DNA of 64,000 bases from assembly GCA_046563655.1 (NCBI GenBank), contig CM102290.1, positions 8,060,001 to 8,124,000 on the forward strand, in the 5' to 3' direction. A model generated the notes under the pieces. It worked only from the letters and a program-made list of their open reading frames with translations. It did no database searches and was not told the DNA's origin. Shown here piece by piece: positions 15,170 to 62,198 of the stretch (the stretch's first letter is position 1; every line of letters begins with the position of its first letter). The DNA comes from Yuukianura sp. NJ FZ-2021. Taxonomy: Eukaryota. The position numbers and the translations under genes are program-made.

Positions 15170-18100
15170 TTATTTTGACCTACTGAACCGTGCAATCAAA
15201 ATGGCAAAAATCCAGAAGATGACGCTCCAAATGATGGAGGAGAGGAAGCCAGGATAAACTGAAGAATGGGTAATGCCCCACCCACGAGTTAAAATGGAGC
15301 GCATACTTTCACAAGCCAGTGTCTCCGGCAGAATGTAGCTAAGTTTGCGAAGAACGCTTGGCATACTCTCAATGGGCCATACCACTCCTGTTAAAAACGA
15401 ACATGAACGAGTAAAACTCGGAAATCGCTGAAAAATAGTCTAAGCGTTGAAATGTACCTGACAAGAGAAGATTTGGATAGAAGCTGCCAAGGGCCAGTTG
15501 GATAGAATTCCGTTCTTCGTGACACACCGTCGATATGAGGAAACCTACGGTAACGAGACGTAAAAAACGTAAAGAAATTTGGAAATTAAAGTTACAAATT
15601 GAAAAGTGCTGAAAATTGAGTTATTACCAAAGGCCATGCCACAAGTTCCTTGCAGAAGTGTCAAGATGACTGCCCAACCTAAAGGACCTCTTACGGGAAC
15701 TTCAAATACCACTACCATAAATATGAGGACAAGCGTCGTTTGCCCAACCATTATGACATATTGGGTTATCATGTGAGCAGTAATCACTTCTCCAGTCGTC
15801 ACTCCAGCCACAAGTGACCTCTCCAGCATTCCCTCCTTCCGTTCCGTAATGAAGGCGGATCCAGTCAAAGCCACCGCCATGAAGAAAATTATACTGGACA
15901 CGGAAAATTATAAACTTAAGGGGACATGTTCTGGAATTGTTCCTATGAAAACTGGTCACTTCTGTATTACCTAAGGACTATTCCAGGGGCCATAAACTCC
16001 ATGAAGCTTGGATGATCAAGACCGTATACAGGGGTGTCAAACTACAAGAAAATGGAAAAAGTTACTGACCTTTGTCCAGCCGCTTGGAATAAAGTGAAAT
16101 AGTAATAGAAAATAGAAAATGGCGAGAGACAGTAATACAAAGCCGGTCAAAGGTCGAAAGCCACAAGCTCATTCCACCACCACCGACTTCCTTTGCCCTT
16201 TCACCTAAACAAATCAAGGCGGATCTTAATGCTTGTCCTCTTACGAATAATGGAAGATCACCAGTAGTAGGATCATAATCACAGTCAGACAGAAGATTCC
16301 TTGAGAAAGTCCGAAACGTATCCAGCAGAAGCCTCTGAATGGAAAACGCAATCTGTTGATTCGACATGTCCATTTGAATCCGAATTCGGGAGCCATAGAT
16401 GGTGGCGTTCTCGGCCAAATTTCCAGCGATTCCTCTGTCTATCATGTACACAGAGAAGTTGGCTGGAAAGACCATGTAGCCCCAGATTCGGCCCTTGTGC
16501 ACATCACCTAGAGCTTCGTCAACCGTTTCATATGGCACCTATGTCCAACAGAGTACCGAATTTAGCTTTACCATGTTGAGGTCAATGCTCAACTTGACCT
16601 GAACAGATTCTTACCAAACTGATAGACTCTTTGGGGAGGTCTGCCATAAAGCGACAACTGAGATTCGTTGTCGTACAACCTTCAGGAGCATGACAAATGT
16701 CTATTCCTGGAAACTCATTGTTGATTACACCGAATTTCATGTCCAGTGGATCTCGACCGATGGCCAGACAGAAGAGGATGACTTGGAAGGCAGGCAGTAC
16801 AAAAATGAATAACATAAACCTAGGGAATACGGAACAAGTTAAGTCAGAATGCTAACGGAAGTCAGAAGACAGTAATTCGTTACCCGATATTTCGCCACAT
16901 GCAAATGAAATTCTTAATAATCATGGCTCTTAGACGATTAAGCGGTTGTCTAGGGTCAAATGAGCAACAGCGTTTGTTACAACAGTCTGAGCATTCTTCA
17001 GCAGCCACTTTCGTCACTCGAGTCAACGCATCAACCTTAGTCTCCGGAGAACTATCGTCAGATGGCGTCACCAGATAGTCTTTGGACTGATGAAAAGTGA
17101 GTCCTATGATTCCATTTTCCTCATCAACAACTCCACGGTCACCGTGATGGCGACTACGGTCATTGTAGACCGTGAGGGCTGACTTGAGCGTTGGATCCGG
17201 AACGGAGACGAAGTTATTTGAAATTGGCGGTTCCGTGGAATTGTTTGTAGTTTTATCTTTCATGCACAGCTTGAGAAAAACATCTTCGAGGTTAAGGCAT
17301 TGATGAACTTTGAGGAGGTTTGCAGGAGAGTCCTCAGCCAAAAGTCGACCACTTCTCATTAGTCCAATCTAAAAAATTTTAAAACAGTTTTAATTTTAAT
17401 GCCCTTCTTAACTAGGGAATGGTGTTGGATACTTCCGCATAGTTCATGCAAGAAGTAGCACGAACTATAGTAGCTTAAGCTACTAATACAAGACACTAAT
17501 AGCTTAAGACACAAATTTGTGTCTTGGATCAAGTAATGTGACCTTACCGTGTTGGCTTGTTTAGCTTCCTCGATGTAATGAGTCGTAATGATGACTGTTG
17601 TCTTTCCAGTGGAAACCAAACTGCACAAATGATTCCAGATGCTAAAGATGGGTAAACATCAAATTATTTCCTAACTTTCAAAATTTTAAGTTTTTTTTTG
17701 TTCAAAAAAGTTACTTTTGCCGAAGAAGGGGATCGACACCAACAGTAGCTGGAATGAAATCAAATTTTGAATTTACGGAATTTCACAAAAATCATTTACT
17801 CAAAATTTGAAACTTAGAAGAAAATTACGTTCGTCCAAAATCAAAATTTCAGGATCCGGTAGCAGTGCAATAGCAAACGAAACCTAAAAAAATATTGCTT
17901 GGATTAGAAAAATGTTTTGTGCCACACGTTGCATTCGGGTAAAATTTTTCTCGGACTTACGCGTCTCTGCTGACCACCACTAAAGAGGATTCAAAATTTA
18001 AAGAAAATTAATTAGCTGCTTTTACATTAAAGAAAAAAGGACTGAAAAAATTAAATGGAAATTCCAAATTTTACCTAAGAGTTCGAATTGATCTAGTATG

Positions 18101-28549: not shown

Positions 28550-31500
28550 TCAATTTTCTTTTTCGACTTGGATCTGTTCAAGTTTTGTAAATTCAAAGGC
28601 AGATGACCTCTCCAGTTCGTTTTCCAATCCCATCGCTTTGAGTGGAAGGTCAATGTGCACAAATTTCTTTTTGTTTGGTCCAAAGTCGGAAACTGAATCT
28701 CCAGATCCATGCAGTATCCACTTGGTAGTTAACAGACCTTCGACTCCCACTGGACCACGAGCATGGATTCTGCCAGTACTAATTCCAACTTCGGCTCCAA
28801 GACCGAATCGATACCCGTCGGCAAAGCGTGTTGAAGCGTTATGGAATACGCATGCGGAGTCAACGCGTTTCAGGAACTCTCGAGCGGCTTTTTCTAAATA
28901 AGAAATCATATTCTTATACCTGCCAAGAAAGTTGAATTATGGCGATTTACCGTTTTCTGAGATTATGATGTCAGTATGTCCGGATCCGTAAGAGTTGATG
29001 TGTTCAATGGCTCCAAGCACGTCTGGCACAACTTCGATAGTAGCCGCTAGTCGTCCATATTCAACACGCAGGGATTTGGCTGGAGGTGGTCCAAACGTCA
29101 GTTCATTTGACAGCGTAGGACCCGCAAAAATTTCAACCTGTTCAAACCAAAGTTCAAATTTGGAATTCCCTAACACTTGAGGTGTTAATTGGTGTAATGT
29201 TAATATTGAACTTGAAAGCATAGGGAAACACGAGTCGAAAAATATTACATTGTTTGCTTTGAGCATGTCACAGAGTTTTCCAAAGAAGTTTCCTTTGCTC
29301 AACAGTTGACGATGAATGAGAATAGTTTCAACTGCGTTGCAGGCTGCGGGGTAGCCACATTTAGCATCTTTGACTGTAACAAAGACAGAACGTTAAAAAT
29401 GTAATGACAGTGAAGGAATTAATCATTCATCTTCAATAAATTCACGTCTGAAACAAACGTGTATAATTAGTAAAATCACGTAAGTGAACCACAACCTCAT
29501 CCAAGGTTAAACACTTTTGAAAATGTGCTAATACACTACTTAAGAACTTTTACATAAAAAACTCTCAGCAAATATTCTTCTGAAATGAAGTCCTCATGAT
29601 TCCATCACAAAAAGTTTCCGTTCCATTGCCACTTCCAAGAAGCTGTTAGCACTTGCAGCATGTTACTACACTAGTCATTGTGTCAATAGATGCTGAATTG
29701 TTTGACCTCTGCACAAGGTCAGGTCAACACCCTTTGCACAACGGAGGTTCCATTCTCCCGTTCAAAGTAAACTTACTAATGTGAAAAGCCTTGTCGACAT
29801 CAGCATCCGAGTCAATGTAAACGTGGCAAATGCCCTCAGCATGCCCAAGTACTGGAACGCCTTGTGCTTGACTCGTCACGGTTTTTACCAACGAAGACGA
29901 TCCACGTGGAATCACAAGGTCAACAATTCCAAGTGCAAGAATATCACTTACGTCTTCTCGAGAAGTCACCTTAAAAGTTTTTGTTCAACATTTTAAACTG
30001 TTTTTCGGGAAATAGATTTTGAAATTGAATTGGACCAACCATTTGAACAGCATTTTGAGCACCATGAATCAACAAAGCCTCAGAGACAATGGAAATCAAC
30101 GCATTGTTGGTATTGATTGCCTCAGTTCCACCTTTTAGTACAAGTCCATTCGCTGATGCTATTGCAAGAGCGGCAATCTGAAAATATGAGAAATAATTGC
30201 AATTAACAAAATTTCAACTAAATTGTTTTCTAAATTTGTCGGTTTTTCACAAACCTGCGGAAGGCAGTCTGGCCTGGCTTCGAAAATGACCATGAGCAAT
30301 CCAATCGGTACTGTAATTTGTTGCAATTCTAAGCAATCTGCCAGCAGCGTTCGTCGTACGGTTTTTCCAACTAGGTTTACGGACTGCGTGGCCATTTGCT
30401 TGAGTCCTTAAAATATATACTATATATTTATAATATGCATAAACATATTTATAATATATGTATTCATAATATAATATGTCATACAAATCATATGGTAACT
30501 ACTTTTGTTTCAATATCTAAATTTGAAAATTATAAAAAAGTTTGACCGACCTGTTGCTAAACTTTCAAGTTTAGCTTCGTCCAACTTGAGTCTGTCAATA
30601 AGTCCTGGTTCCAATTTGTCTTTCTCCGCATGTTCCAAGTCAATTTGATTTGCCATCAAAATGTCACTTTTTCGTGACATGAGGAGATCAGCAATTTGCA
30701 AAATAATTTCTGACCTCTGTGCTCCCGTCAAATTTAGCAAATGCCGACCACCTTCTTTGGCTAATTTTAAAAACATGGAATATACTAAGTTTTTTGAAAA
30801 AAAAAGTGGCAATTTCTTATGAAAGATTCAAATAGATTTTCCAAAAACTTGCCTAAATCTGCCAGTATTTCTGGCTGTTTGGTTCCATTGGCATAGTTTG
30901 TAAAGAGTGTGCCAACACGACGACCTGCCATAACCGAGGTCAATGCTCCCTCTCTGCCACCGTTGCAAATGACAACAGCAATTCCTTGTTTGAGAGCCCA
31001 CGTAGACGCAGAAACCTGGACATAGGGGAACTTCAATTCAAAAATGGAAACAGTTCTGAATGAAAACTAAACCTAATGAACATAACACTCGTACTTTAGA
31101 TTGCATTCCTCCCAAGCCGACACGGGAAGTTGCTCCGAATCGAACGTTTCCGGTAGAATTCGGACAATAGGTGTGCAGAAGCCGTGAACCATCAAAGCCA
31201 GCTAACAAATAAAAAAAAACCTCTAAACATATTTGAACTCTGTTTTTTTTTTTAATTTGAAAAAGAAATCGAAAAAATTGGAACTTACGCGGTGCAGTCA
31301 TAACACCGTCAACGTCAGACATCAAAACCAAGAGATCCGCTTTCACTTCCGCTGAAAGTAGAGCTGCTAAACTGTCATTGTCGTTTACTGTTATATCCTA
31401 GAATCGAAAATCAAAGTGTACAAAAACGAAAAATTTCAATCAAAATGGCACCCATATATACTTTTCAATTTCAAATTTTGAAACTTAAAATCTTACTCCT

Positions 31501-32891
31501 TCCAAAGCATCATACACTTGTGGTGGTGCAGCGACGGCGTCATTTGTGTTCACAATTGGAACGATATTGAGAGCCAGCAACTCTGTCATGGTTTGAAAAA
31601 GGTGTTTTCGGGTGTAGTCATCCGTAAAATCAGATTTTGTCACCAGGACCTGGAATTATTATAAAATTTTAATAAATTTTATGAAAAACATGTTTAATTT
31701 AAAGAATTATGTTGTTCGCTTTCGTCTTTCGCAAAATCATTTGATCTAACCAACTTTGAACTTCTACAACAAGTTTTAGAAGGTTTTTCATATTGATTGC
31801 CTCTCCTACCTTGACGTTGAACTTGACAGATCTCACTTTTGAATTGATATGACTTTGAGGCATGATAATTCAAAGGCGAAGGGTAACAATTCAACTGTTG
31901 CTTTCTGCGCATGCTTACCTGTGCAATTCGCACGCCGTACTGAGCAAACATGGCTTCGTAGAGGGACATCAAACCGGATTGGCCCACTGCTGCTGCTGCG
32001 CGTGGCTCCAGCAAATTTTTCTTTCGACCCTAACATAACAAAGCGTCACTTAACATTGGGAATTCGAAAAATAAAATAATTTGCGTCAAATTCAATCAAA
32101 CTTACACTGACTTGACGATCACTATGCAGCGTCTGTCTCATTGACATGGACATAACCAATTCCTGTGCCATCTTTTGCTTACCAAAAGCCACTGCACCAC
32201 TAGTCACCATGATCAATTCCCTTCCAGAATTTTGGAGTGTTGCTATCTGAAAAATTTTGCAAAAATTGAACCTTTTAGTAAGTATTAAAAACAATTCTTG
32301 GTACGCTATATATCGGCGTATAACGATGTTGTTTTTCGGTCCCAAGATGAAATGCCAAAAAAATGAGATTTATTTCTAATCTTGAAATTGGCTTTCTTTT
32401 AGAGATTGGAAATTAAATTTAAGTGCGCGTTACACGCGAGTGCGTGTTATACGCCGATAAATATGGTATTTCTTGATATCAGAATTTTTTCTGTTACTTG
32501 TTCGACTAGAGACGCCACTCTGCCGAGGGCCAACCCACAATTGTCCTCGCGGGTCAAAACGGCACTGCCCACCTTGACCACAATTCTGCGTGCATTGGGC
32601 AGTTGACCTCGAGAGTTCAATTGGAGCTTCATTTGCTTGTTCATATCCCCTGGACCTATCATTGTCTTCGGTGGAATATACTCCTCATAACGTGGAAACG
32701 TAGACGAAATGGATCTTCTAGCGACCTGTTCAAACAAAATTTAAAACATATTAAAACAAAGTCAACCAATATTTAATTCTAAATATTTGTACTCTTACGT
32801 TTGTCGTAATAACTGTAAGCTTCCGTGGATATCTGAGGAGTCCGAAATGGCACAAGTCCGAACTGAGTCCAGAAATTAACTTAGCGTACAT
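28550..32891 (-). CDS. ALDH18A1: Delta-1-pyrroline-5-carboxylate synthase (gamma-glutamyl kinase + gamma-glutamyl phosphate reductase), multi-exon, with a likely mitochondrial leader
   Basis: [145 protein letters not shown] at 32891 ([11 protein letters not shown]). Confidence 0.97.
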
Positions 32892-38209: not shown

Positions 38210-39027
38210 CAGTGGATTCTCTAAATAAGGGAAAAAATCACGATTGGAGGATTGGTAGTAGGCGCCTCCCCCAGTACCGTAAGATTTCTGGTAAACGGTC
38301 AGTTATATGGAATTTAAGGCTAGGAACACCATTCTAATGAAAATTTCCTGTTTCGAAGTTCAGAGTATATAATTAATATTAATATACATAATATTCATAT
38401 ATTAATGCTAATTATATGTCATATCTATATACTAATCAATATTATATGGTATATTATATGCAAATTACGCTGTGAATGTCACCCTTATTAAACAGGTTAT
38501 ATAATATAATATATTATATACAGTGCGCTGTTGCGCAGATTGTGCGCTGTTGCGCAGGTTGTGCGCTGCTGCGCAGGTTGTGCGCTGTTGCGCAGGTTGT
38601 GCGCTGTTGCGCAGGTTGTGCGCTGTTGCGCAGGTTGTGCGCTGTTGCGCAGGTTGTGCGCTGTTGCGCAGGTTGTGCGCTGTTGCGCAGGTTGTGCGCT
38701 GTTGCGCAGATTGTGCGCTGTTGCGCAGGTTGAGCGCTGTTGCGCAGGTTGTGCGCTGTTGCGCAGATTGTGCGCTGTTGCGCAGTTTGTGCGCGGATAT
38801 ATATATATAATATATATATATATATTAATATTAGTTAATTCCATTTAATTATCTAATTACTTTTGTTTCGCACCAAAAAAAAATTAACCAAAAAAAAACA
38901 ATCGTAAAAAATAAGCCGATAAACTGAAACATACGTTCCCTCCAAAATTAAAACTTTACGGTACCGCGACTTCGAGTGAAAGTGAGAAAGAGGAGGAGCT
39001 CCTGTCCCTTATTTAGAGAATCCACTG
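38210..39027. mobile_element. Tc1/mariner-pogo-type non-autonomous element (818 bp)
   Basis: Perfect 23-bp TIRs cagtggattctctaaataaggga (38210-38232) and tcccttatttagagaatccactg (39005-39027), flanked by TA on both sides. No transposase ORF. Confidence 0.92.
38523..38794. repeat. 19-bp minisatellite (gtgcgctgttgcgcaggtt) x14 plus partial copy, flanked by TA-rich tracts, nested in the MITE
   Basis: Counted directly; units are near-identical with single substitutions and have no spacers. Confidence 0.97.
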
Positions 39028-48296: not shown

Positions 48297-51200
48297 TTAG
48301 CTCCACTGATGCATGGGATGAAGGGGAATGGAAGTTCCGTTGCAGTTGTGATGATTTCTGTCCACTAGACGATTCTGCATATTTGTTCGGTAAATGGCTC
48401 TCGACATATGTGGACGTGGTGGTTTCCGGCGGCACAGAATCCGACGAAACGCGCGCTGAAACTCTTTGGAGGTACACCTAATGTTGTGACACAACAAAAG
48501 TAATAGAAAACAAAATTAAAGTAAAAATGAAACAGAATAAAGGGAGGAAGAATCGGTAAATTATGAATTTCGAAAGATTCAAAGTTACGGTCAAAGGTTA
48601 TAAAATGATTTTGTGTAACGTACGCGTAAATGAAAGGATTTAAGCAGCTATTCATGTAGCCCAGCCAGAAGAAGAGGTCAAACACTTCGTCAGGAACGTT
48701 ACACTCTTTGCAGAGCGCAGCTATAAAGAAAAAGATTATAAAAAATAATAGATTAACGAATGGTTTTCTTTTAATTACGTCATTTTAAAATTATTTGATA
48801 ATTTCGAATTGTATTTCCTACGTTAGTTTTGGAAGTGGGTCACAGGGAGGAGAAATCCCATTGAATTTAGCTACTTTGTTTGCATTGTTATTCAAAACCA
48901 AAAATAGAATGGCGCATCTCAGGTTTTAATCATGCTAATTCAGATTTCTGTTCGAGTCCTCTTCAGAAAAAAGTTTTGTTTCCAAATGCATTTTGAATAA
49001 TGAGGAAAGTCACGAGTCTTCATGACATGTTTTTGCGAGTGTGACATTTTTGGAGAAAGAAAGAAATTTAATGGAAAGATACTTAAGAAAGTAAAAAACT
49101 GAGAAATGCTTGGAAACATGAAATTTCACTCATTATTAAAAGATTTTTTGAATACTATTAAGATAGAAGGGAACGTCAAGACGTTAATAAATGACGCTCT
49201 GAAAAGCTCTTCTTTTCTTCCCATCTTTTGTTCCACGCAAAAAGTCAAAAAGAAAACGTTAAGGTTGTGAAAGAGAAAGATCCAGATTCAGTCGGTTTTC
49301 CTGAAGGTTCTAATGGAAGCACACCATTATGTCAATTGTATTGTATCAACTGCAATTATGTCAACTGTTTTGCGTCAGCTAGTATTGTCTCAACTGCTAC
49401 TTGTCTCACCGTGCGTAAAACTTAATTCAGCTTAACTTAGGTTTGATTAAGTTTTTTGATCCAATAGCCGCTGACTCAGTTGTGCATTGATGCAAATCCA
49501 ATTGACAAAATTCAGTTGATGGAATGATAGTTGATACAACGGCATCGGACCGTTCTAATCACCTACCTAATTCAACTTAATCTATTCAGCCGTTAATCGT
49601 AATTTACTATAAAATAAGCTTAGGGTTATGAATAACCTATGTTGAAATTTTTTGTTAAGCTAAATTACAATAACTTAACCTGACGTTAATAAAAATAGGT
49701 TAGGTTTAGAAAAAAAAGAGAAAGTCACTAGGTCAAGTCATGTCTCATTGATTTTCAGGAAACTGTGCACATAAACACATCAGCTTTGTATAGAAACAAA
49801 ACAGGATTGAACGTAATTTGAAAAACATTTTTGGAACTGGTTTTCACGTTTCATCAATTTGTGATGATAATGAGTTTGATGGTTTGAGGATGATGAAGAT
49901 GAAATTAAGAATTGACAGAACCGTAACCGAAGAAGAAGCTGTCAAACCAATTCCGCTCTATCTGCTACAAAAACTGTTTGAACAGCGTTCAACACCAACG
50001 GAGGGCACAGAAGAAGCATATTCAACATCAGCCTCGGTCAAAGATGATAGACAAAGTGCCCTCGAAGTGTTTTGTCCATGTTAGAAGTCATTAATCACAC
50101 CTCACTTCAAGTTATTAGAACGAACCCCAATGGAGAACGTTGGCTTAAATTTTTTAAAATCTTGGAACATCATGATGTTCCGAAACTTTCAACTTGGCAG
50201 TTTTTCCAAGAACGAATATGAATTTGTAATACCGAAAATATGTAATTTCGGCACGAAAACATACGAATATGAAAAGCCTTTAAGAGCACTCTACGTCTAA
50301 GTGTCATTTTGCATACATGAGTCAGGATTTTCAGACTCGAATCTGTAGAAACATTTTTTTTGAAAACCGTGTTCAACTTCTTTAAAAAATTGTTTAGAAA
50401 GCGAGTTCTTTTTTTTATATTACAAACAGAATGAAAGCAACGCATTTCAAAAACGACGTTAACTCTATCCGTCTTTCTTTTTTGTTTTTTTCTCTTTTCG
50501 TTTGTTTTTTGAATTTTGAAGGTTTAAGGCGGTTTCTGGAAACTCAATTTTTGTTTCAGTGTTGCGCAATTGTGGCAAATCTTAAAAAAATTTCCAGGAA
50601 AAACTTTACTCTGTAAGAACTTCATTATTTTCAAAACTATCGCTTTCTTTTCCTTTCTTTTTTTCTTTTTCTTTTTTTGCTTTTGCTTTTGTTTTTGTTT
50701 TTTGTTTTGTTTTGTTTTTTTTTCTTGAAAATGCTCCACTTATACTACAACAGGAAAAGTTTTCAGTTTTGTTAAGCGTCTTTTTTTTAACACCACACTT
50801 GAAAAGTTTTTAAATAAAGTCTTTCAGTTTCTTTTATCTTTAGCTTTGATGGTATTTCTTTCCAGCTTTTTCAGTTTCCGGGTTTTGGAATTTTATAAAA
50901 TACTTTAAATATAGTTTCTGAATTGTGAATTTATTCAGCTCAAAAAACTAAGCGCCGCGGAAAAATAACGGATGTTTTTAATATCTGTGACGCTTGACGA
51001 CAGACAGGCATTGTGCAGCTCTTTAAAAAATGAAATTTCAAAGAGAGGAAAATTTTAAACGTTGAGAAATATAAAATGGATGAAAATGACAAGAGAAGTC
51101 TACAAGTTCTCATCAAATGCAACCCCATGACCTCGTTGTTTGTTTTGAGGTTGAGGCTTTCACCCTGTGGTTTCAACCTAATGAAAATCCAGAAGAAAAT

Positions 51201-54200
51201 CAAAAGGAAATGAAGCCGTCCGCATAAACTAAACAGTTTTAATTAGTCACGGCTTGGAGCTCAAAGTAGCTTCTTCTAAAACTTCAAAACCGAAAGGACT
51301 GGTGTATACATTTGTTATTAAACTTTTTTTTTTCAAAAGTTAAAAATTAAAAACAATTTGTTTCCTCTTTGTTGAAAAAACTTTGTTGCGTTTTGAATAT
51401 TGTAACCACTGTTTTTCTCACAGCTCACCTGTAAAACCACGTTGTTTGAGGAACTATTTTCTGTAACATTGAAAACTTTTTGAGACCAAAATCCAAACAA
51501 TTGGCTTTGAAGCAAATAAGAAATGACCTTGAATTTGAAAACCACTGAAAGCTGAGAGAAGGATGAATTGTTCAAAAGCAGTAACTTTCCAATCGGCTAA
51601 TTTCCTGTTTAACCTTTCTTCTCTTTTGACAGCTTCACTTTCATAATTTTCAAAACAGAAAAGTTTTCCAACCGAAAACTTTGTTTTAAAGGAGGAAAAA
51701 AATTTTCAGCACTTACAGTAGAGGTTGTTTCAGTGCAATCCCAACTGAGGCCAAAGTGAAAATTGGCATTCCAATTTTTTTATAAATGCTTTTTAAAAAA
51801 CTTCTAAAAAATATGAGTCTCCAAACTTCTTTCCAAAATTTTTCAATAAAAACTGTACTTTACTGTTTTCATTCACAAAAAAACTTTTTAAACACGGAAG
51901 TGGTATGATTATTTTCAAAATTTGTGCAGCTCATGACACTCAACTTTGAGCCAGTCTAGGAAAAAAATGTCTTGTTAATTATTTTAAAAAAGTTTACATG
52001 GACTGGCAAAAGTTGAACTAAATTTTGAATGAATGCATGGATACACAACAGTCTAGAAAAATTAGTTTGGAAAATGGAACGTGCTGTAGAGAACATTTTT
52101 GAAAATGATTTTAAATTTATGTGATTTATGGAACGAGCAACATTTTCCGGTCTCCTTGTTTGAAACTTTGCGGGCACAGTTTGAAATGTTGGAAACAATG
52201 GGAGGTTAGTTAATGCGAATGTCACGAATTTGCATTAGGGAAAAACAACAAAATCTACTGGAATATCCGGTACACGACACTCCGCTGACCACAATGCACC
52301 GGAGGACATTGAATTTCCTGTTGTCGTGATCAAAAGAAACTGTCATTACGGGAGCGCTTTGAAGTTGGTAATGGAATTGGATTTGTACGGCAGAAAACAG
52401 AATTGGTGGATGCAGCGATGCATAGAGCTGTGTCAAAAGTTGTTTCCTCCAACCATGAAATATTCTAGTCTAACAACAAATTTGTTTTCCGTTTCAAGAA
52501 TAAAAAATAACACAGTAAAGAAAAGAGGAAGAAAGTTTCTCTTGAGGAACTTTTTCGTTTCCATCCATACCTTGGAAACGCTTTTCAGCGAAAATCCTTT
52601 AGAGCATTATTAGTGTAAAAAGGGAAGTGAAAGTGAAGGTGTTGGCTTGATGATGGATGAGTTCTACATGGCTCACTTTCGCTTTCACTTGAGTAATAAT
52701 TGGTTTGGACGTTCCAACAACATCAAATGTCTTTTTCGTGAATTAGAATAGGAAACTCGTGGTTCTGAAAGGAGTTCTATCGGCGGCATAAGTTTGACAT
52801 CTTGTTCATCTTCATACCGCCGACGATCATACAATGGCCACAGCCTGTGACACGCGTCATTGCAGAAGAAAACGGCGTCATTGAAGAAGCGTCATTAAAA
52901 CTGTCGCTGCCACTCAATACTTTTCCTAAATTCTCGTTAAATTTTTTACCTAAAAAAGCTAGTGACTTTGAGCAGCTGAGCCAATCTGAAGATGAGTGGA
53001 GTCTACTTCAACTTCATAGATTTTGATTTTAGTGAAATTTTTCAGAACAAAACGGGATTAGTAATTCAAAACATTTACGATAACACTTTTACTTATGCTC
53101 AAACAAAATTTTAATAACTTTTTTTTAGAAAAACTAAAAACGCCCTTTCAATTTTGAACATGCTGCTTCTACTATTTTTTTTTCAAACGCTTATGTGGAA
53201 CTACTAATTTTTTTAGAACCAGCTCTACTTTAAACGCTAATGAACAAGGAAGCGGAAAATTTAAAAAATTAAATTCGTAAAAGCAGAGTGCTTTAAGTAA
53301 ATTTGAAGTTCATTAAAATTGAAGCTGATAGATAGATAGGTCAAACATGAGACTAGAAGCTCCTTTTGACTATTACTTTTACTTCGTTAAATTTGCCACG
53401 AGTGAACATTTACGTTTCTCGTAAAACTAGATTGGAGTCACTAAATTGAATTATGCCGTTGCATTGGCTCCAAATTTTTGCCCTTCCTTTAGTTTCATCA
53501 TCTTAGCCTGAACTATGACCTAATGAGTTCTTTTGAAGTCATTATTACAAAGTCACTCCGGTTTCATCATAAAGTTTTGATTTTTTTCAAATGGGTTTTC
53601 TAGTACAGTACACTTCAAGCCTCTGATCAAATGTAAATAAAAATGACTGTACAAAAATTGAATTGATTTCCAGGGTATGAAGAAAGCGGGGCTATCAAAG
53701 TTCAAGTGAAGCCTAAAACTTTCTAAATATCTATTTGAACAGTTTATACTCGAAATTCAATCTGCAATTGAAACGCCTGAAAAGTTATCCTCTAAAAATG
53801 AGTTCAAAGAAAATGAAAAGTACACTATGTTCCACGTGTTCTAAGCACTTCTTCACATGCTTTCACCAATGTACCAAAACTAGTAACATTTTGAACCGAT
53901 ATAATATGCTCTAGCAATGGGTATATTGTCATCACAAACAAGTATGTAGAAAGCTCTATACAAAAGCTTAGGGTAGGCTAACCTAACCTAAGCTTAGATC
54001 TACGTTCTCGGAAATTCGGATATTGTATGGAAAAAATATTATGTTTAAGTTAAAAAATAAACTTCACAAATTTCAGATCAGGCAAATTCGAAACCTAGTT
54101 TTCCAACATGTGCCTTCGAGAACCTAGTTTTTTTTTTTCAGAAAGAAAATTCAACTGTAAATCCAGAACGTGTGCGTCCTTCGCGACGGTCTTTGGAAAA

Positions 54201-57200
54201 TCTATATTGTATCCCGTGTCACTTTAGGGAGTAAGTCGTTTCGTCCTTTTGGCTTTCTAAGACTTTGTATTGAAACTTAAATTAAGTTGGGGAAAAGGTA
54301 TACCAGCAACAACTTTGGCATGTACAACACTGAAATATGAAATATTTTTTTAAATGAAAGTTATAAAACTTTTGATTGGTTCGTGGAAGCGTTTCTGATT
54401 TCCCCGCTGAATCCTGAGATGTGATGGTAATTTGAGTAAAATAAACAAGAAAAATTTCAAACGCACTTTCACCAAAAAAAAAGTATTCAGAAAATACTTA
54501 AGATTTGTAAACAACAAATAAACTAAATTAGTCTTCAAAGGTTGACTTTGACACGTGTTTGACTACGCTAAACCATACTAACGTCATAGTTATTTTTAGC
54601 AAACAGGAAATTTATAACCATTTCTAAATATTTGAGGCAGGAAAAGTATTAAAACGTAATTAATTTTTTAATTGTCCCAATATTAAATAAAACGAATAAA
54701 AAGTCATGGGCAATTTTAATAAAATTACTTCATATGTTACTACAAATTAACTCAAAAAGTGATTTGCGCTATACAAGAAAAAGAGAATCCATTTCCATTT
54801 CCCACCTTCAAAAACAACTTTGTGGGAAATTTCAATTTTTGGTTGTTTTTGTTTCCAAAGTTGTCAAAAGCGGTTTCAAAACTCCACTTTCTTTTTCTGC
54901 CGAGATACAATTTGAGACTGGAGATTTTTCAAAGTTAAAAGAAACCCATGGAGTAAAGAAAGGTCTAGAAGTAAAATTTTTCTATAAATCATAAAAACAA
55001 AAGGAAGGAGAGAAAACCGTTGAAGATTTGAGCAGATTTCACGGCCCACGGAGCGTCAAGACAAGTTCAATCAATCATGTCTTTGCTTTCGGAAACCGAC
55101 CGAGGGAAAGGAGAAACCCTTGCGAATTTAGAAGTGATCTCTTTTGCAAAGTCTCTTCACTCGGCGGTTTCAAGATCTGCATCTCTAAGGAAACTGGTTA
55201 GTCGTTCGGAGGTTCAAGATCACTTGAGCACGGGTTCTCAAACCACCGTGTAGGGTACGTAATGTACTAAGCTGTAGTACTCCCTAAGACTTTTTTGAGA
55301 GGATTAAATTAAGTATGAAAGGGTTTGAAGTAGAAAATATTTACTTTCTCCTTGCTGCCTCGCGCCTCAATCCGCTTAAAATCTTTTCACTACCGGAATT
55401 TGGATTCTTGGAATTTTTTTTCAACAGGCATCTTTAGAACATGTTCCAATTTTCTTTGCAAATTACGATTCAGGAAAAAAACTCAGTTTTTTGGAATCTT
55501 AGCAACAAATATAAAAATGGAACTATGAGTCGACTCGACTAACCTTGCTATTAAATTGAAAACGTTAATTAGAATCTGATGTAGAAGATAAGCTACGAAA
55601 CAAGAAAGCACTTGTTGAAGCGATAGTTTGAACAACTTGGAAGCGGAAAAGTTTATAAGAGCGTGGCTTCAAGTGCTTGATTTTGGAAAACAAAAGTATC
55701 TGATCCAGAAAAGGGTAAAATAGGAACGATTGCTGAAAACAAAAGTGGGTTGTGAGAGTGCTAGCCTTGGGAATTCGTCAAGTGTGTGCGTAGTGCTACG
55801 AAACATTGGATAATAGTTATATAGTTATACCTTCAGATTCTTACACAAAAACTTACCAAGTGGAAGGACAAAGAAAAATGGAAACCAGCAAAGAAGAAAG
55901 GCTCCGACGACGATTGCCAACGTCTTTGCCGCCTTTTTCTGTCTCCTGAATTTTGCAATTTTTCCAAAACCAGCGTTGAGTTTTCGCTCGGGAGAGGATG
56001 ACGGTGGCGACGGAGTCAAAGAGTTCGGACGACTTCCATTCAGCCCCCCACCACCGCTGCCCCCGAAACCATTCCCCACCACTCCACCTCCGCCCTGGCG
56101 ACGCAAACTACTGACATTGTTTGGGTGCTGAAAGTGGTGCCCTCTGCAGCCGCGTGAAGGGCGTAGAGCCCTTGGAGTGAAACAAGTCCAATTCAGTTCA
56201 GGAATATGCTTGCCACTGTGCTGTTTCCCACCACCGCCGCCCCCTCCACGGTGAACCCTGAGAACAATTCCAGTTTCATGACCATAATCATCCACTACGC
56301 CAGCATGAGAATGTGACGAAGACGAAGAGAGTTCAGGTCGGGCCAGGGGGGCCAACTGTTTCGTGCCAACTTTTGACCCTGCATGTCCATTTCCTGGATG
56401 TGGATAGTCTGTCTTAGGAGATGTTCTTATCATGGCTAGGTCGGGCGTTGAATTGGCCCGCCCCGTGGCTCCACCAAGGTGGATCCGAAGAGTTACGTCC
56501 TGTTTCGTAGTTTTGATTCCACATTCCAGAAATTTCGTTTGTCGAATAGCAGCTTTGTAAATTTTCCAGTAAACAATCAAAATGATAAGCATCGGCAGGT
56601 AAAATGATCCAGTGGCTGAGAATAGAACATAGCCAAGCTCCTTGTTGATGGTACAATCGTAGGGCATACTGGGCGGACCTATTTTTTAAATTTAAATATC
56701 CAAACCTTAACATTTGCGGTTTAAATCTTCCAATAATAAAAGCATTAAATGCTGTCGACAATACATGGCAAATCAAATGCAGTTGGACTGAGAAAAACCA
56801 CACAAGTGCATGCTCACCTTTCCATCCAAAAAGTGGTCCAATGCTGATGGTGATTGAAATAGCCCATATAAGTACCATCAGAATTGACGTCCGCTTGCCC
56901 AGCATGATTGTGGAGTAGCTGAGTGGAAAATTGACGCCGATGTAACGATCGACGCTAATAGCACATAGAGAAAATATGGAGGCCTATGGAACAAATAGTG
57001 TTGGTTCACAATGTTAAACTTATTACAAACAAGTGTATTACAAAAAACTTTTGATCATATGGATGACCTTTGGCGAAGAAAACCTTCTCTTTTAGGAAGG
57101 CCACATAACCTCTTAACCTAATCTTCACTTAATATCATTCCATTTGTCTTACCGTGCAGTAGAGAACGTCAATTGCAGCCCAAATTCCACAAAAAGTTTC

Positions 57201-60200
57201 TCCGAAGTACCATCTAGTAAAGAAAAAAAAACACAAAAATGTAATTTTCTTAAAGAAAAAATGAGCTTCACAAGAATTCTTTTGGGATCGTCAGCAGAGA
57301 AAGTCGGTTGCATTTGTCTTGATGGAGAAGTCTATACAGTAGAAGAGGCAAAGGCAGTAGCCATAATCAAATTTAAACTACTAGAATGGAAGTGTTACAA
57401 AATGTACAAAATGAATCCAATTCCTGCTTTTTATTTTTTTGTAGTAAAATTGAGTTTTTTGTCCTTTGAACATTTAATTGTATTATTTTTTCTTACGAAA
57501 TCGAAAGAGTTTTGTTCAATTTCTTTTTTCAAAGGTCAGCTTTTCAGTAAAACGTCAAAAGTGAAACTGTTTGATTGTGCTACATCATTCCATACTTTGT
57601 CAAATGTGTCAAAGAGGTCTGACGCTTATTTTTCCAAGTTAAAACTGATCAACAAGTGACTATGTCAAGATTTCAAGATTTCTTGGTAGTGCCTAGTGTT
57701 TGCCCATATGTCATTGTAGTCCAATTTTGAATATACTGTTTTTTTAAAAAGAAGAACAAACCGAGTGTTACAAATCTAAAACCGAAAGTGTCACTTTTCT
57801 CCACAACCGAAAACATTTCGTGCAACGAGGGTAGAGACAAAACAATCTTCTTCTAACAAAAGAAAAAAGTAGACACGGTTCGGTATGATTTAAAATTATT
57901 CCCTCTGCTGCCATTACTCACAAAAATGAGAGGAGAATTTTATTTTATTTTTTAAAAAGTTGGTGTTTATGGAGACTGAGGCAGTATATTCTTGGAGCAA
58001 AACGTAACTTTTTTGTACTGGTGGTAGCAGTCTCGCTGTGAAAGTGAACTTTTGTGTGTCATTTTGAGATACAAAAGTCTCAATCCATTTCGTTTCTTTC
58101 GCGCTGTTGACAAATAGGAAGAATGTTTCCAAAGACTTTCTTTTCCAAATTCAATTCAGAATGGAAAGAGAGAGCCTTAAGGCACGTCCTACGTTTCTTT
58201 ACAGAATGAAATGAGGAAGTGGAAATTCGGTTAGCTCCGCTTCGAACTTTTTTTATAGAACAGTAAGTGTGGATTAGAAAAATTCGCACTTTTTGGAGCG
58301 TCAGTAAAAAAAAATTTCTTAGAAACTTCCATTTCATAATAAAAGACCTTGAAACTTGAACCGCATGTGAGGCATTTAGTTTTTGCAACACTGTCAGATC
58401 AACGAATCAGAACTCGATTTAGAAAAGTTTCCATTTCTTATTTTAAAAAGTTTAAGAATTCGAGATTTGCAAAATTTTGAAAAGAGAAACTGAAATGGTC
58501 ATTCTGTATTTATATCGGCCCGCCAACAGAAATTTTTTAATTTGTTTTTGTTTCCGATTTGTGGGGGGCATAACGCAATGGATTATTATTAGAACAAGAT
58601 ATTTTCAGTATTTCGAGTGACTCATTTCTTACTTTTCCGAATTGGTTTTCGAAAAGAAAATAAATAAGAACCGACAGAGAAATGGCCGCTTCAATAACTC
58701 TTCCAACTTGTCTGGGAAGCACGTGGAAATGGAACCTTTTTTTTAAATGAAGGTTGTGACCTTCACTGCTGAAAAACTGCGCAAAAAAACGGAACTGACA
58801 GAGAAAAAACATCCAAGAAAAAAATAGACCCTGAGCGAAGTCTATAATAAAATTTTAAAATATGAAGTTGAAGCTCCTTACTGCAAAATGAATTTAAACG
58901 TTGACTTTGTCAAATTCAGTTGAAGGCTAACAAAATTGTTTGATACAAAAAAAAAAAAACAACCAATTCAATTTGTATTCTTAGAAAAATAAATTCGTCG
59001 GATCGCTGAATGCAAGATTCAAAAAGAGTGAAAGCGACTTTTCACTGGTTTTAAATTATTCACAATCAAAAGCGCAGTAGTAATTCGACCATTTGTGCAG
59101 TTTCATATTTTTTCTGAGAATCATATTAACTTTGTCAAAGGATGAGAAGGAAATTTTGTGACTTTCAAATTTCATTAACAAAGAAGAACAAATCTGGAGC
59201 CCGAACAGACACAAAACGTAGCACAATTTTAGCAGTGGTTGGAAGAAAATGAGCGTCTTCGAGTGAATTTAATTCCACCATCGTTAGATTCTCTCGCACC
59301 GGGCCACCGCCGCCGTAAAGTGAGAACACTCTTCTTTGAAATAATAAAAAATTAAGACAAAACGAAACACCTTTACAGTTGTTCTCAATTAATTTAAATG
59401 TCAGAGAAATAAAACTCCGTGTTCATGTTCTTTATTAGTTTTTTTTATTGCATCTTTTCGAAAAAAAAAAAAGAGCTCAAATTTCTTGAAAAAAATACTT
59501 TTGTGGCTGTTTGCGCTTCAACCTTGCACTCGTTCAAGGTTTTTCGTTCAAGGGGATTAAAATTTTTGAAACAAACTCAGGTTCAAACCTTTAGGCGCCA
59601 GTATTTAAAAGAAATCTCCGCCGGTTTTAAAAAAAACTTCACGTTTACGTAGTCTTTCTTTAGAAAGTGATGGGAAATTAAACCTTGAAGCTCAATTAAC
59701 TCTGCATTTGAAAGGGAGAGTTTGTGCATTACAGGATTAAGTAGTTGTGTAAAGGCTCAACTCAAAGGACTTTAACTGAGCCCTTAATGCCTAACAAAGT
59801 GGAAAGTCCTACACATAAAAACGTGTGTCATGTGTCAAAGGAGTCATAAAAAACGTTTCGACTAAAAAGTAAGCTAGCGACTTTGCAGCAACACTTTTAG
59901 TTAGATATAGCTTGGAAAGGAGGGTAGGCAGGAAGTAAATCGCTAAGTACGTTCATTCAAAAGTAATGGAATGCGCTTATCTTTAGTTTCCAATCTGGAT
60001 TTGACATCGTTTGCGGCACAAGTGTACCAAAATATCAACAATCTAGAAACGAACCAGCTAAACATGGTAAACAGAAATACAAAATTTAACCAGTGCACAC
60101 AATCTACACCAAAATCGATCATTTTTGAATTTCATTAAGATCTACGTTCAAAAAAGTGAAGCAAGGTATACTCTCTGTGTATGAATTTTTTTTGTCAAAA

Positions 60201-60792
60201 AACGTTTGAATAGCTATATTGGATAACACCTTCAAAGGTAAATGGCATGAGCAAAATTTCAAAAAAATTCACCAAAAATATTGTTGGTGTTAAAAGATTT
60301 CAAAGGCGGTTTCTCCAGTGAAGATTTTTTTTTGTTTTTTTTTTCCAATTTGTCCCTAATTTTACCATATTTTTCTTGTATGTCGATCGCTTTGTGTTGA
60401 TAATTTGGTTGGGTTTGACCGAGTATGAAGGTAGCATTAAGCTTTGAGGTCAGGAGGAGAGTTCGACGGAATCAAGTTGCCAAGGGATATTAGCGAGGTA
60501 CTTACTTTCCCGTGATTTCAAAGACAGCCGAGAATGGCAAAACTGTCAAGCCCAATCCAAGGTCTGCAACGGCCAAGTTCACAATCAAGTAATGCGTCGA
60601 GCTGCGCAGATTTGGACTCAGCGCAACTGCAAAGAGAACGAGCACGTTTCCACCAATAGTCAATAGGATGATGACGGTAAGGGCCAGGGCTTTCAGCAGA
60701 CCAATCGTCAACGGAAGTGGAGCATTCACACAATTTTTTAAGTCATCCAGTTGTTCGTTCCACGCACAGGGCATGCCGGTCGAGTTCGCCAT
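48297..60792 (-). CDS. Class A aminergic GPCR, alpha-1 adrenergic receptor-like, 537 aa; exons 60506-60792, 57153-57213, 56818-56983, 55857-56678, 48624-48720, 48297-48477
   Basis: All six exons join in frame (1614 nt) with GT-AG sites. GGNVLV, NLAVADL, VLPFSA, WYFG..C.IWAAIDVLYCTAS, DRYIGV, ISIGPLFGW, GYVLFSATGSFYLP, KKAAKTLAIVVG, CWFPFFFVLPL, FWLGYMNSCLNPFIY. An acceptor just upstream of the ATG suggests a further 5' exon. Confidence 0.93.
49315..49551. mobile_element. Non-autonomous DNA-transposon relic with 8-bp TSD, in the large GPCR intron
   Basis: Direct repeat gttctaat at 49307-49314 and 49552-49559, GG...CC termini, left-arm tandem tcaact motifs versus right-arm agttga motifs. Confidence 0.75.
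50640..50725. repeat. T-rich low-complexity tract (tttc/tttg)
   Basis: Seen directly. Confidence 0.85.
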
Positions 60793-61847: not shown

Positions 61848-62198
61848 AAAAATACCACGGTCGAATTTCTAATTTGTTGTTTCGGATGCATTAGTATTTT
61901 TTTTGTAAAGCACCACGCTCGAATTTCTAATTTGATGTTTTCGATGCAGTAGTTTTTTTTTAAAATACCACGGTCGAATTTCTAATTTGATGTTTTCGAT
62001 GCATTAGTTTTCTTCTTGTAAAATACCACGGTAGAATTTCTAATGTGTTGTCTTCGATGCATTATTTTTTTTTTTTGTAAAATACTACGGTAGAATTTCT
62101 AATTTGTTATCTTCGGTGCATTTTTTTTTTGTAAAATACGAAATATCACGGCAGAATTTCTAATTTGTTGTATTTGACGCAGTAGTCTTTTTTTTAAA
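61848..62198. repeat. Tandem repeat, 6 copies of an approximately 55-61-bp unit
   Basis: Consensus aaataccacggt(c/a)gaatttctaatttg(t/a)tgttttcgatgca(t/g)tag(t)n-gta recurring at about 61851, 61909, 61964, 62021, 62081 and 62141. Confidence 0.92.

Follow-up and report, generated by a model that had tools for sequence, protein, structure and literature searches.

Does a springtail carry a genuine alpha-1 adrenergic receptor, or an octopamine or dopamine receptor that looks like one in a few motifs only, and what would such a receptor bind? The question is raised by a locus lying within a 64,000-nucleotide stretch of the genome of Yuukianura sp. NJ FZ-2021 (contig CM102290.1, positions 8,060,001 to 8,124,000; the whole stretch is called the window hereafter). 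An initial annotation, made from the sequence alone, had assigned the encoded protein to the alpha-1 family rather than to the insect OAMB or Dop2/DAMB receptors. Springtails (Collembola) are hexapods that stand outside the insects proper.

Gene Structure and Receptor Hallmarks

The locus holds an intact six-exon gene encoding a class A amine receptor of 537 aa. Its coding sequence lies on the minus strand, from an ATG at 60792 to a stop codon at 48297, which are exactly the ends given in the initial annotation; the translated splice model comprises 1614 nt (537 aa plus stop) and is free of internal stops, and each of the five introns is of the GT...AG type. The coding exons and intron 4 are the following, in window coordinates:

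60506..60792, minus strand, coding exon 1: ATG, N-terminus with an N-S-T glycosylation site, TM1 (GNxLV) and TM2 (NLAVADL)
57153..57213, minus strand, coding exon 2 (61 nt): ECL1 and first half of TM3, with C3.25, WAAIDVL and D3.32; acceptor AG, donor GT
56818..56983, minus strand, coding exon 3 (166 nt): second half of TM3, DRYIGV, ICL2 and TM4 (ISIGPLFGW)
55857..56678, minus strand, coding exon 4 (822 nt): ECL2 cysteine, TM5 (S5.42, S5.46), third intracellular loop and TM6 (CWFPFF, L6.55)
48721..55856, minus strand, intron 4 (7,136 bp): phase 1, donor G/GTAAGT, directly after TM6 (...VLPL)
48624..48720, minus strand, coding exon 5 (97 nt): ECL3 and TM7 (F7.39, Y7.43, NPFIY)
48297..48477, minus strand, coding exon 6 (181 nt): helix 8 (SKEFQRAFRRIL), C-terminal tail and stop TAA

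Exon 1 ends in phase 2 with the donor GTAAGT. Its ATG at 60792 was preferred over an in-frame ATG located about 28 codons upstream because the Orchesella orthologs start to align at window residues 3-13; at the other end, the alignment of the Orchesella proteins reaches residue 536 of 537, which backs the C-terminus. The third intracellular loop, encoded in exon 4, is about 200 aa long and rich in Gly, Ser and Pro, and exon 6 encodes a cysteine which, by its position, falls where palmitoylation is usual.

All the hallmarks of class A aminergic GPCRs (C3.25, D3.32, DRY, P5.50, CWxP and NPxxY) are intact in the protein. The five motifs on which the initial annotation relied are found in the spliced product, namely WAAIDVL at residue 107, DRYIGV at 128, ISIGPLFGW at 162, GYVLFSATGSFYLP at 187 and KKAAKTLAIVVG at 419, together with CWFPFF at 435 and NPFIY at 473. 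With the numbering anchored on R3.50, P5.50, P6.50 and P7.50, the nine pocket residues it had named are present at the positions it gave: D111 (3.32) and C115 (3.36) in TM3, S192 (5.42) and S196 (5.46) in TM5, F439/F440 (6.51/6.52) and L443 (6.55) in TM6, F463 (7.39) and Y467 (7.43) in TM7.

The resemblance to known receptors lies far beyond chance. In a search of solved structures with exon 4 alone as the query, ADRA1A chains were matched at E = 9e-28, ADRA1B at 6e-18 and 5-HT1A at 7e-17. Mammalian ADRA1D sequences matched the same exon with 80% identity over 13% of the query; the TM6 stretch shares 26 of 30 aligned residues with rat alpha-1D, in agreement with the near-identity to ADRA1D that had been announced. 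The insect motifs cited for comparison are real as well, as mosquito OAMB does contain WLAVDVW, DRYVAV and ICFPPLVGW, and DRYWAI occurs in Musca dopamine receptor 2.

Phylogenetic Placement

The main maximum-likelihood tree was built from 80 receptor sequences and 392 columns under LG+C20+F+G4, with UFBoot and SH-aLRT supports; clade labels follow the names given in the sources, which are mostly automatic annotations. For the deorphanized alpha-1 receptors, annelid, hemichordate and other relatives stand in, and the sampling holds no priapulid alpha-1 sequence. The window protein falls inside an alpha-1 clade of 47 sequences (100/100), which also includes 13 vertebrate-type sequences (themselves 100/100), nine of them unnamed and so labelled only by their clustering with the alpha-1D of rat and newt and with sequences matching solved ADRA1A/B at 1e-133 or below. 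Within this clade, it is nested in a group of four springtail sequences (100/100), itself part of a pancrustacean clade of 16 (100/99), and a broader arthropod clade of 23 (96/94) unites it with spider, tick, mite, decapod, branchiopod and barnacle sequences. The OAMB clade (16 sequences, 100/99) and the Dop1R2 clade (six sequences, 100/99) are separate from it. A control tree, from which three long rows were dropped (77 sequences; 332 columns, each occupied in no fewer than 92% of rows), gave the same clades, with an SH-aLRT of 99.

We then forced the springtail sequences into the competing clades in AU tests, the groups being named after the tree had already been seen: joining them to OAMB was 103 log-likelihood units worse (p = 4e-74), and joining them to Dop1R2 was 93.5 units worse (p = 2e-6). 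Over the kept columns, the mean identity to the window protein decreases from vertebrate alpha-1 (45.5%) to OAMB (40.0%), Dop1R2 (38.2%) and alpha-2/5-HT receptors (36.4%). Another potential home, a group of three tree rows, one relative of which is the nemertean "GPCR No9", was rejected; it carries Y6.55 and A3.53 and joins OAMB weakly (81/77).

Clade-Specific Residues

Three positions discriminate between the clades, and one has to keep in mind that these discriminators (A3.29, G3.53 and L/M6.55) were derived from the same 80-sequence alignment and do not constitute an independent definition. The window protein carries all three, as A108, G132 (within DRY-x-G) and L443. At position 3.29, alanine is found in 41 of the 46 other alpha-1 sequences (T or I in four, a gap in one), leucine in all 16 OAMB sequences, and H or R in the six Dop1R2 ones. 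The glycine at 3.53 is replaced by alanine throughout OAMB (16/16), Dop1R2 (6/6) and the rejected three-row group (3/3). As for position 6.55, L or M occupies it in 46/46 other alpha-1 sequences, Y in 16/16 OAMB sequences, and N or H in Dop1R2; it is thus the only one of the nine listed pocket residues that discriminates from OAMB, the other eight being equally present in that clade and, therefore, providing no argument for a catecholamine over octopamine. We regard position 6.55, occupied by L in the window protein and by Y in OAMB, as a candidate determinant of ligand choice.

The core of the amine pocket (D3.32, S5.42, S5.46, F6.51 and F6.52) is indeed common to the window protein, OAMB/Oct-alpha1R and Dop1R2/DAMB. 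In TM5, the S5.42, A5.43 and S5.46 of the window protein recur in most OAMB sequences (13, 15 and 15 of 16, respectively). C3.36 and F7.39 set it apart from Dop1R2, which has instead S3.36 in five of six sequences and T7.39 in all six; W3.52 and N/H6.55, also characteristic of Dop1R2, are likewise lacking in the window protein. With vertebrate ADRA1A, ADRA1B and ADRA1D, it shares A3.29, DRY-I/V-G, S5.42, S5.46, L/M6.55 and F7.39, but the identity over conserved columns is only 42-49%, and neither the third loop nor the tails are related. At position 5.43, serine is found in 9 of 13 vertebrate-type sequences in place of the alanine of the window protein, and the window gene has six coding exons versus two in vertebrate ADRA1 genes.

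Could the protein nevertheless belong to the octopamine receptors of the OAMB type or to the dopamine receptors of the Dop1R2/DAMB type, and resemble ADRA1 in a few motifs only? The three clades are neighbours, both in our tree and according to PMC7762591, and the E-values obtained with exon 4 overlap (8e-19 for mosquito OAMB versus 1e-21 to 1e-17 for mammalian ADRA1D). This reading is, however, highly improbable, as the fully supported alpha-1 clade excludes both groups, the AU tests reject both joins, and the residues expected from OAMB (L3.29, A3.53, Y6.55) or Dop1R2 (S3.36, W3.52, N6.55, T7.39) are not there. Loss of the family from most insects, as stated in the text of PMC5282848, could suggest in turn that the springtail gene is a decaying or unexpressed relic, in a lineage on its way to losing alpha-1. 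We consider this very doubtful: the frame is open across six exons with canonical splice sites, every hallmark position is intact, the terminal branch of the window protein (0.28) is shorter than the median end branch of the tree (0.49), and its identity to the three other springtail orthologs is 74-80% over the kept columns. Judging from these comparisons, the window receptor is almost certainly an ortholog of the bilaterian alpha-1 adrenergic family, which comprises vertebrate ADRA1A/B/D together with the alpha-1 receptors of invertebrates, and the initial assignment is borne out by both trees, the AU tests and the clade-specific residues.

Springtail Relatives and the Intron after TM6

In blastp searches with the spliced protein, the closest sequence comes from Allacma fusca (P0082; 65% over 442 aa), followed by those of Orchesella dallaii (P0003; 57% over 562 aa) and Orchesella cincta (P0004, 593 aa; 56% over 589 aa). 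All three represent the same orthologous gene, and even the long third loop can be aligned. The O. cincta protein is called "Alpha-1A adrenergic receptor" by automatic annotation, and the other two are unnamed products. The exact protein of the window was absent from the matches in the protein collection searched, and our literature search found no paper discussing the Orchesella or Allacma alpha-1 genes. The P5CS gene adjoining the locus has its best matches in springtails as well and, with the relatives of the receptor itself, points to a host that is probably collembolan and not an insect in the narrow sense.

Vertebrate ADRA1 genes have a single coding intron, a phase-1 intron located right after TM6. 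Among alpha-1 protein pieces, 12 partial gene calls (five arthropod-type and seven vertebrate-type) stop or diverge right after LPLG, and eight further arthropod-type pieces behave likewise after LPLG, VGK/VGQ or LSK; four full-length alpha-1D proteins continue past LPLG. The exon end at the codon position of intron 4 seems, thus, to be common to vertebrate ADRA1D and other arthropod alpha-1 gene calls, in a comparison that rests on protein ends and not on a genomic alignment. None of the motif-bearing sequences of the OAMB (0/40) and Dop1R2 (0/8) clades is truncated after TM6, a count of little weight as these sequences were picked for being long.

Distribution in Arthropods

The initial annotation had presented an alpha-1 receptor in an arthropod as novel, while allowing that a prior description would remove this novelty, and had recommended checking whether orthologs were already known from non-insect arthropods. 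Such orthologs have already been described, so that the novelty falls away: members of the same clade are reported from other arthropod lineages, namely Daphnia (PMC5282848), the spider Cupiennius salei (Cs-alpha1; PMC6052906) and the lobster Homarus americanus (alpha1AdrR, present in the brain; PMC8177520), and alpha adrenergic receptors are described as common in arachnids in PMC6052906. Many crustacean and chelicerate proteins also bear the name in their sources. Arthropod proteins named alpha-1A or alpha-1B adrenergic receptor(-like) made up 8 of 77 rows in one of our searches and 23 of the 120 listed in another. Among the species whose proteins bear such names are Orchesella cincta, ticks, mites, barnacles and shrimps, as well as a cockroach, a termite and a sawfly. 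The window gene is, thus, one more alpha-1 ortholog of an already annotated arthropod kind.

PMC5282848 describes alpha receptors as missing from "most" insects and as occurring in "a few arthropods", Daphnia among them; annotated alpha-1 copies exist in four insects from three orders. Together with the springtail copy, these four suggest a patchy loss that took place within the insects. Our literature search, whose scope ended before the arthropod lists in the additional files of PMC5282848 (which may include hexapods), found no paper explicitly stating a patchy loss of alpha-1 in hexapods. A study of the planthopper GPCR A35 (PMC12689387), considered as a possible report on an insect ortholog, makes no mention of "adrenergic", and section 2.2 of PMC8835733, on cockroach amine receptors, does not mention a cockroach alpha-1 adrenergic receptor.

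Predicted Ligand and Coupling

Vertebrate ADRA1 receptors couple to Gq/11 and mobilize calcium. By orthology, the springtail receptor would bind its amine via D3.32, S5.42/S5.46 and the aromatic cluster of TM6, it would, like the deorphanized alpha-1 receptors of an annelid, a priapulid and a hemichordate, respond best in vitro to noradrenaline or adrenaline, and signalling would run from Gq/11 through phospholipase C to calcium. Taken as a whole, with the gene structure and the clade as observed and the ligand and Gq/11 coupling predicted from descent, the explanation by alpha-1 orthology appears likely to us.

The annelid, priapulid and hemichordate receptors belong to the same bilaterian family in the phylogeny of PMC5282848 and are, going by the main account given there, its only non-vertebrate members with measured ligands; noradrenaline and adrenaline are the most potent agonists, with octopamine, tyramine and dopamine being inactive or about 100-fold weaker (Table 1 of PMC5282848). 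Our literature search found no pharmacologically tested or deorphanized alpha-1 receptor from an arthropod. In the part of PMC6052906 dealing with arachnids, their alpha receptors, alpha-1 as well as alpha-2, are said to be without pharmacological data and are called "likely OA receptors". The same paper points out that the alpha-2 adrenergic orthologs of Chilo and Drosophila owe their name, octopamine receptor (OAR3), to a high octopamine sensitivity. Arthropod orthologs of one clade can, therefore, come to differ in the ligand they prefer. The springtail protein might, thus, be an alpha-1 receptor by descent whose function in the animal is that of a receptor for octopamine (or for tyramine or dopamine), in which case springtails would be devoid of noradrenergic transmission. 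The TM5 residues it has in common with most OAMB sequences speak for this possibility, which we take seriously while considering it less than even. Against it, each of the three non-vertebrate alpha-1 receptors that have been deorphanized shows a preference of about two orders of magnitude for noradrenaline and adrenaline (PMC5282848), and the window protein has the L6.55 and A3.29 of the alpha-1 clade in place of the Y6.55 and L3.29 of every OAMB sequence. By analogy with these three receptors, we slightly favour noradrenaline or adrenaline as its most potent agonist in vitro; that noradrenaline is also the ligand used by the animal itself is, in our estimate, less likely than not.

The window gene adds a well-supported data point to the established view that alpha-1 receptors go back to the bilaterian ancestor and persist in many arthropods. 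The main question it raises is what arthropod alpha-1 receptors bind and whether these animals make noradrenaline, and the gene offers a clean template for a ligand assay. It is rather unlikely, in our opinion, that the springtail receptor functions as a noradrenaline receptor along with the orthologs scattered over cockroach, termite, planthopper and sawfly; if so, adrenergic transmission would have persisted into hexapods beside octopamine signalling and would have been lost several times independently inside insects, not once at their base.

Gene model of the receptor

Between 48.3 and 60.8 kb, the stop-to-stop frames of the minus strand encode pieces of a seven-helix amine receptor. We set the exon limits from the nucleotides at the ends of each frame piece and joined the exons by coordinates with a script:

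60792-60506, minus strand, coding exon 1
57213-57153, minus strand, coding exon 2
56983-56818, minus strand, coding exon 3
56678-55857, minus strand, coding exon 4
48720-48624, minus strand, coding exon 5
48477-48297, minus strand, coding exon 6

All five introns are GT...AG, and the spliced frame of 1614 nt (537 codons plus stop) contains no internal stop. Its stop and ATG coincide exactly with the limits 48297-60792 of the initial annotation, whose five quoted motifs are all found in the protein (residues 107, 128, 162, 187, and 419), as are CWFPFF (435) and NPFIY (473). A second in-frame ATG is located some 28 codons farther upstream; the ATG at 60792 is favored because alignments with the Orchesella orthologs start at window residues 3-13, which correspond to residues 8-16 of those proteins.

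Other features of the window

28550-32029, minus strand, gene for delta-1-pyrroline-5-carboxylate synthase (P5CS; glutamate 5-kinase and gamma-glutamyl phosphate reductase), represented by several exons; frame 31038-31397 has a Pfam AA_kinase match
15545-17368, minus strand, ABC-2 type transporter-like frames; 15545-15907 matches Pfam ABC2_membrane (3e-7), and no Pfam match was obtained for the adjoining frames 16062-16538 and 16880-17368
7826-8161, minus strand, exon whose product matches Pfam Syja_N (SacI homology domain) at 1.4e-34, indicating a phosphoinositide phosphatase gene
38523-38794, probable minisatellite in which a 19-bp unit recurs in tandem (14.3 copies, 96% matches); several of its frames are open and would give a repetitive peptide
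61849-62198, 58/113-bp units repeated in tandem (3-6 copies with 80% matches), some 1 kb 5' of the receptor start codon

Family placement

Against solved structures, exon 4 matched ADRA1A (9e-28), ADRA1B (6e-18), and then 5-HT1A (7e-17), and its E-values for mammalian ADRA1D (1e-21 to 1e-17) overlapped that for mosquito OAMB, an alpha-adrenergic-like octopamine receptor (8e-19). As exon-level E-values alone do not separate ADRA1D from OAMB, we turned to trees. As a source of outgroups, 1.84 billion cluster representatives were scanned in full by HMMER with the Orchesella dallaii ortholog as query, giving a list of the best 150 of 34,401 matches at E <= 0.001. Clades were labeled from the source names of selected rows: Dop1R2 (invertebrate-type dopamine receptors) from “dopamine receptor 2” of Musca and Halotydeus, octopamine from a barnacle “alpha-like octopamine receptor”, and “alpha-1 adrenergic receptor(-like)” from a sawfly, a tardigrade, an acorn worm, a sea star, an oyster, a sea slug, and an octopus; other outgroup names were “alpha-2C-like” (chiton) and “5-HT1D-like” (Priapulus). 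An initial FastTree of 162 rows gave four groups, and a more careful IQ-TREE analysis used 80 chosen rows and 392 columns (LG+C20+F+G4 by PMSF).

Table. Clades of the careful tree (rows; ultrafast bootstrap/SH-aLRT).
Alpha-1 (whole): 47; 100/100
Vertebrate-type alpha-1: 13; 100/100
Ambulacrarian alpha-1: 3; 100/98
Arthropod alpha-1: 23; 96/94
Pancrustacean alpha-1: 16; 100/99
OAMB: 16; 100/99
Dop1R2: 6; 100/99

Lophotrochozoan rows also fall inside the alpha-1 clade, and its pancrustacean part comprises springtails, four insects, branchiopods, a barnacle, and malacostracans. Nine of the 13 vertebrate-type rows are unnamed and called vertebrate from clustering; two others match solved ADRA1A/B at 1e-133 or better. 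An excerpt of PMC7762591 describes the same arrangement in published trees, with alpha-1 adjoining OAMB and Dop1R2 close by. A control tree, restricted to columns filled in >=92% of rows and leaving out the three longest rows, recovered the same clades (SH-aLRT 99). In AU tests, with both groups defined after tree inspection, forcing the four springtail rows with OAMB was 103 log-likelihood units worse (p-AU 4e-74), and forcing them with Dop1R2 was 93.5 units worse (p-AU 2e-6). The proposed membership of the alpha-1 clade, apart from OAMB and Dop1R2, is thus upheld by the tree, the control, and the AU tests alike. The initial observation is confirmed, and its assignment to a family is correct and holds up robustly.

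With numbering anchored on the conserved R3.50, P5.50, P6.50, and P7.50, all the pocket residues put forward for this assignment (D3.32, C3.36, S5.42, S5.46, F6.51, F6.52, L6.55, F7.39, and Y7.43) are present, but across the 80 rows most of them are shared between alpha-1 and OAMB, and in many cases with Dop1R2 as well. The six positions below tell the clades apart, and at each of them the window protein agrees with alpha-1.

Table. Residues by clade (window; alpha-1; OAMB; Dop1R2; group A, a small clade beside OAMB).
3.29: A; mostly A; L 16/16; H or R 6/6; mixed
3.53: G; mostly G; A 16/16; A 6/6; A 3/3
6.55: L; L or M in all; Y 16/16; N 5/6, H 1/6; Y 3/3
3.36: C; C; mostly C; S 5/6; C
3.52: I; I or V, one W; I, L or V; W 6/6; mixed
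7.39: F; mostly F; F; T 6/6; F

Over the kept columns, mean identity to the window protein was 75.8% for springtails, 56.9% for crustaceans, 52.8% for chelicerates plus a centipede, 50.1% for insects, 47.7% for other invertebrate alpha-1, 45.5% for vertebrate alpha-1, 40.0% for OAMB, 38.2% for Dop1R2, and 36.4% for alpha-2/5-HT.

Group A is a separate clade (P0251, P0252, P0255, P0257, and P0278), one member of which is named “GPCR No9” (nemertean Lineus); its three careful-tree members have Y6.55 and A3.53, as in OAMB, and the best solved match of P0252 is ADRA1A.

Intron after TM6

The last complete codons of exon 4 read ...VLPL, and the intron that follows is in phase 1. Of the partial gene calls, seven that are vertebrate-type and alpha-1D-like break off one residue beyond ...FVLPLG, and five of arthropod type stop or diverge directly past LPLG. 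The same holds for eight further arthropod-type pieces, at LPLG, VGK/VGQ, or LSK, whereas four alpha-1D proteins of full length run on beyond this point. The extra E or K at partial-call ends is expected from read-through into a GTGAG or GTAAG donor. As judged from protein ends rather than genomic alignments, this fits an intron position common to vertebrate and arthropod alpha-1; in vertebrate ADRA1 genes, the coding sequence has one intron only, at this position. Among motif-bearing rows, all selected for their length, 0 of 40 in the OAMB clade and 0 of 8 in the Dop1R2 clade broke off there, a comparison of little weight.

Springtail relatives and described arthropod orthologs

Among the matches listed, springtail proteins were closest to both exon 4 and the spliced protein: Allacma fusca (65% identity over 442 aa), Orchesella dallaii (57% over 562 aa), and Orchesella cincta (56% over 589 aa), with two unnamed pieces at 67-71% to exon 4. 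In the careful tree, the window protein is sister to Allacma (100/90) within a four-row springtail clade (100/100). The neighboring P5CS, unrelated to the receptor, points by protein similarity to the same springtail affinity: the top rows for its exon 28550-28936, leaving aside an unnamed piece and a flatworm protein that is doubled, are Allacma (82%) and Folsomia candida (80%), followed by a second Allacma protein (69%) and, lower down, Orchesella dallaii (81%). The host is therefore most probably a collembolan, a member of the hexapods but not of the insects proper.

Sources use the name alpha-1A/1B adrenergic receptor(-like) for 8 of 77 rows in one protein search and 23 of 120 listed rows in another, covering crustaceans (crabs, shrimps, crayfish, lobsters, barnacles, Artemia, Daphnia), chelicerates (spiders, ticks, mites, a pseudoscorpion), and hexapods (Orchesella cincta, Periplaneta, Cryptotermes); the sawfly Cephus cinctus and a tardigrade also carry alpha-1 adrenergic names. 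Kozma et al. (PMC8177520) report that the lobster brain expresses a homolog of the alpha-1 adrenergic receptor. The surprise voiced in the initial annotation, whose novelty was to lapse upon prior description, falls because arthropod orthologs are already described in papers and source annotations. Four true insects (cockroach, termite, planthopper, and sawfly; proteins P0118, P0119, P0138, and P0207) form a long-branched 100/100 group within pancrustacean alpha-1, where the planthopper protein, named only “hypothetical”, joins the three named ones; this hints that retention, or loss, of alpha-1 in insects is patchy. Our searches found no literature linking Collembola with adrenergic receptors or addressing alpha-1 retention in particular insect orders.

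Ligand and function

The gene encodes an aminergic GPCR that is intact and belongs to the alpha-1 clade. The amine would be held by D3.32, S5.42/S5.46, and the TM6 aromatic residues, coupling would be through Gq/11 as for vertebrate ADRA1, and noradrenaline and adrenaline would be the preferred agonists. The only non-vertebrate functional precedent is that of the Platynereis, Priapulus, and Saccoglossus receptors, which, according to portions of PMC5282848, are activated by both amines at high nanomolar concentrations or lower (EC50 for Platynereis, Table 1: noradrenaline 2.1e-7 M, adrenaline 3.7e-7 M), whereas octopamine, tyramine, and dopamine either had no activity or were weaker by some two orders of magnitude. 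Simple transfer of this pharmacology is argued against by Sukumar et al., who, in passages of PMC6052906, regard arachnid alpha-1/alpha-2 receptors, which lack pharmacological data, as likely octopamine receptors, and note that insect alpha-2 orthologs got their names from octopamine sensitivity. We therefore lean only slightly towards noradrenaline or adrenaline as the best in vitro agonist of the window receptor, and regard noradrenaline as the animal's own transmitter there as rather doubtful. The remaining interest is modest: the window holds a clean hexapod member of a clade without arthropod pharmacology, in which position 6.55 is a candidate determinant of ligand choice.
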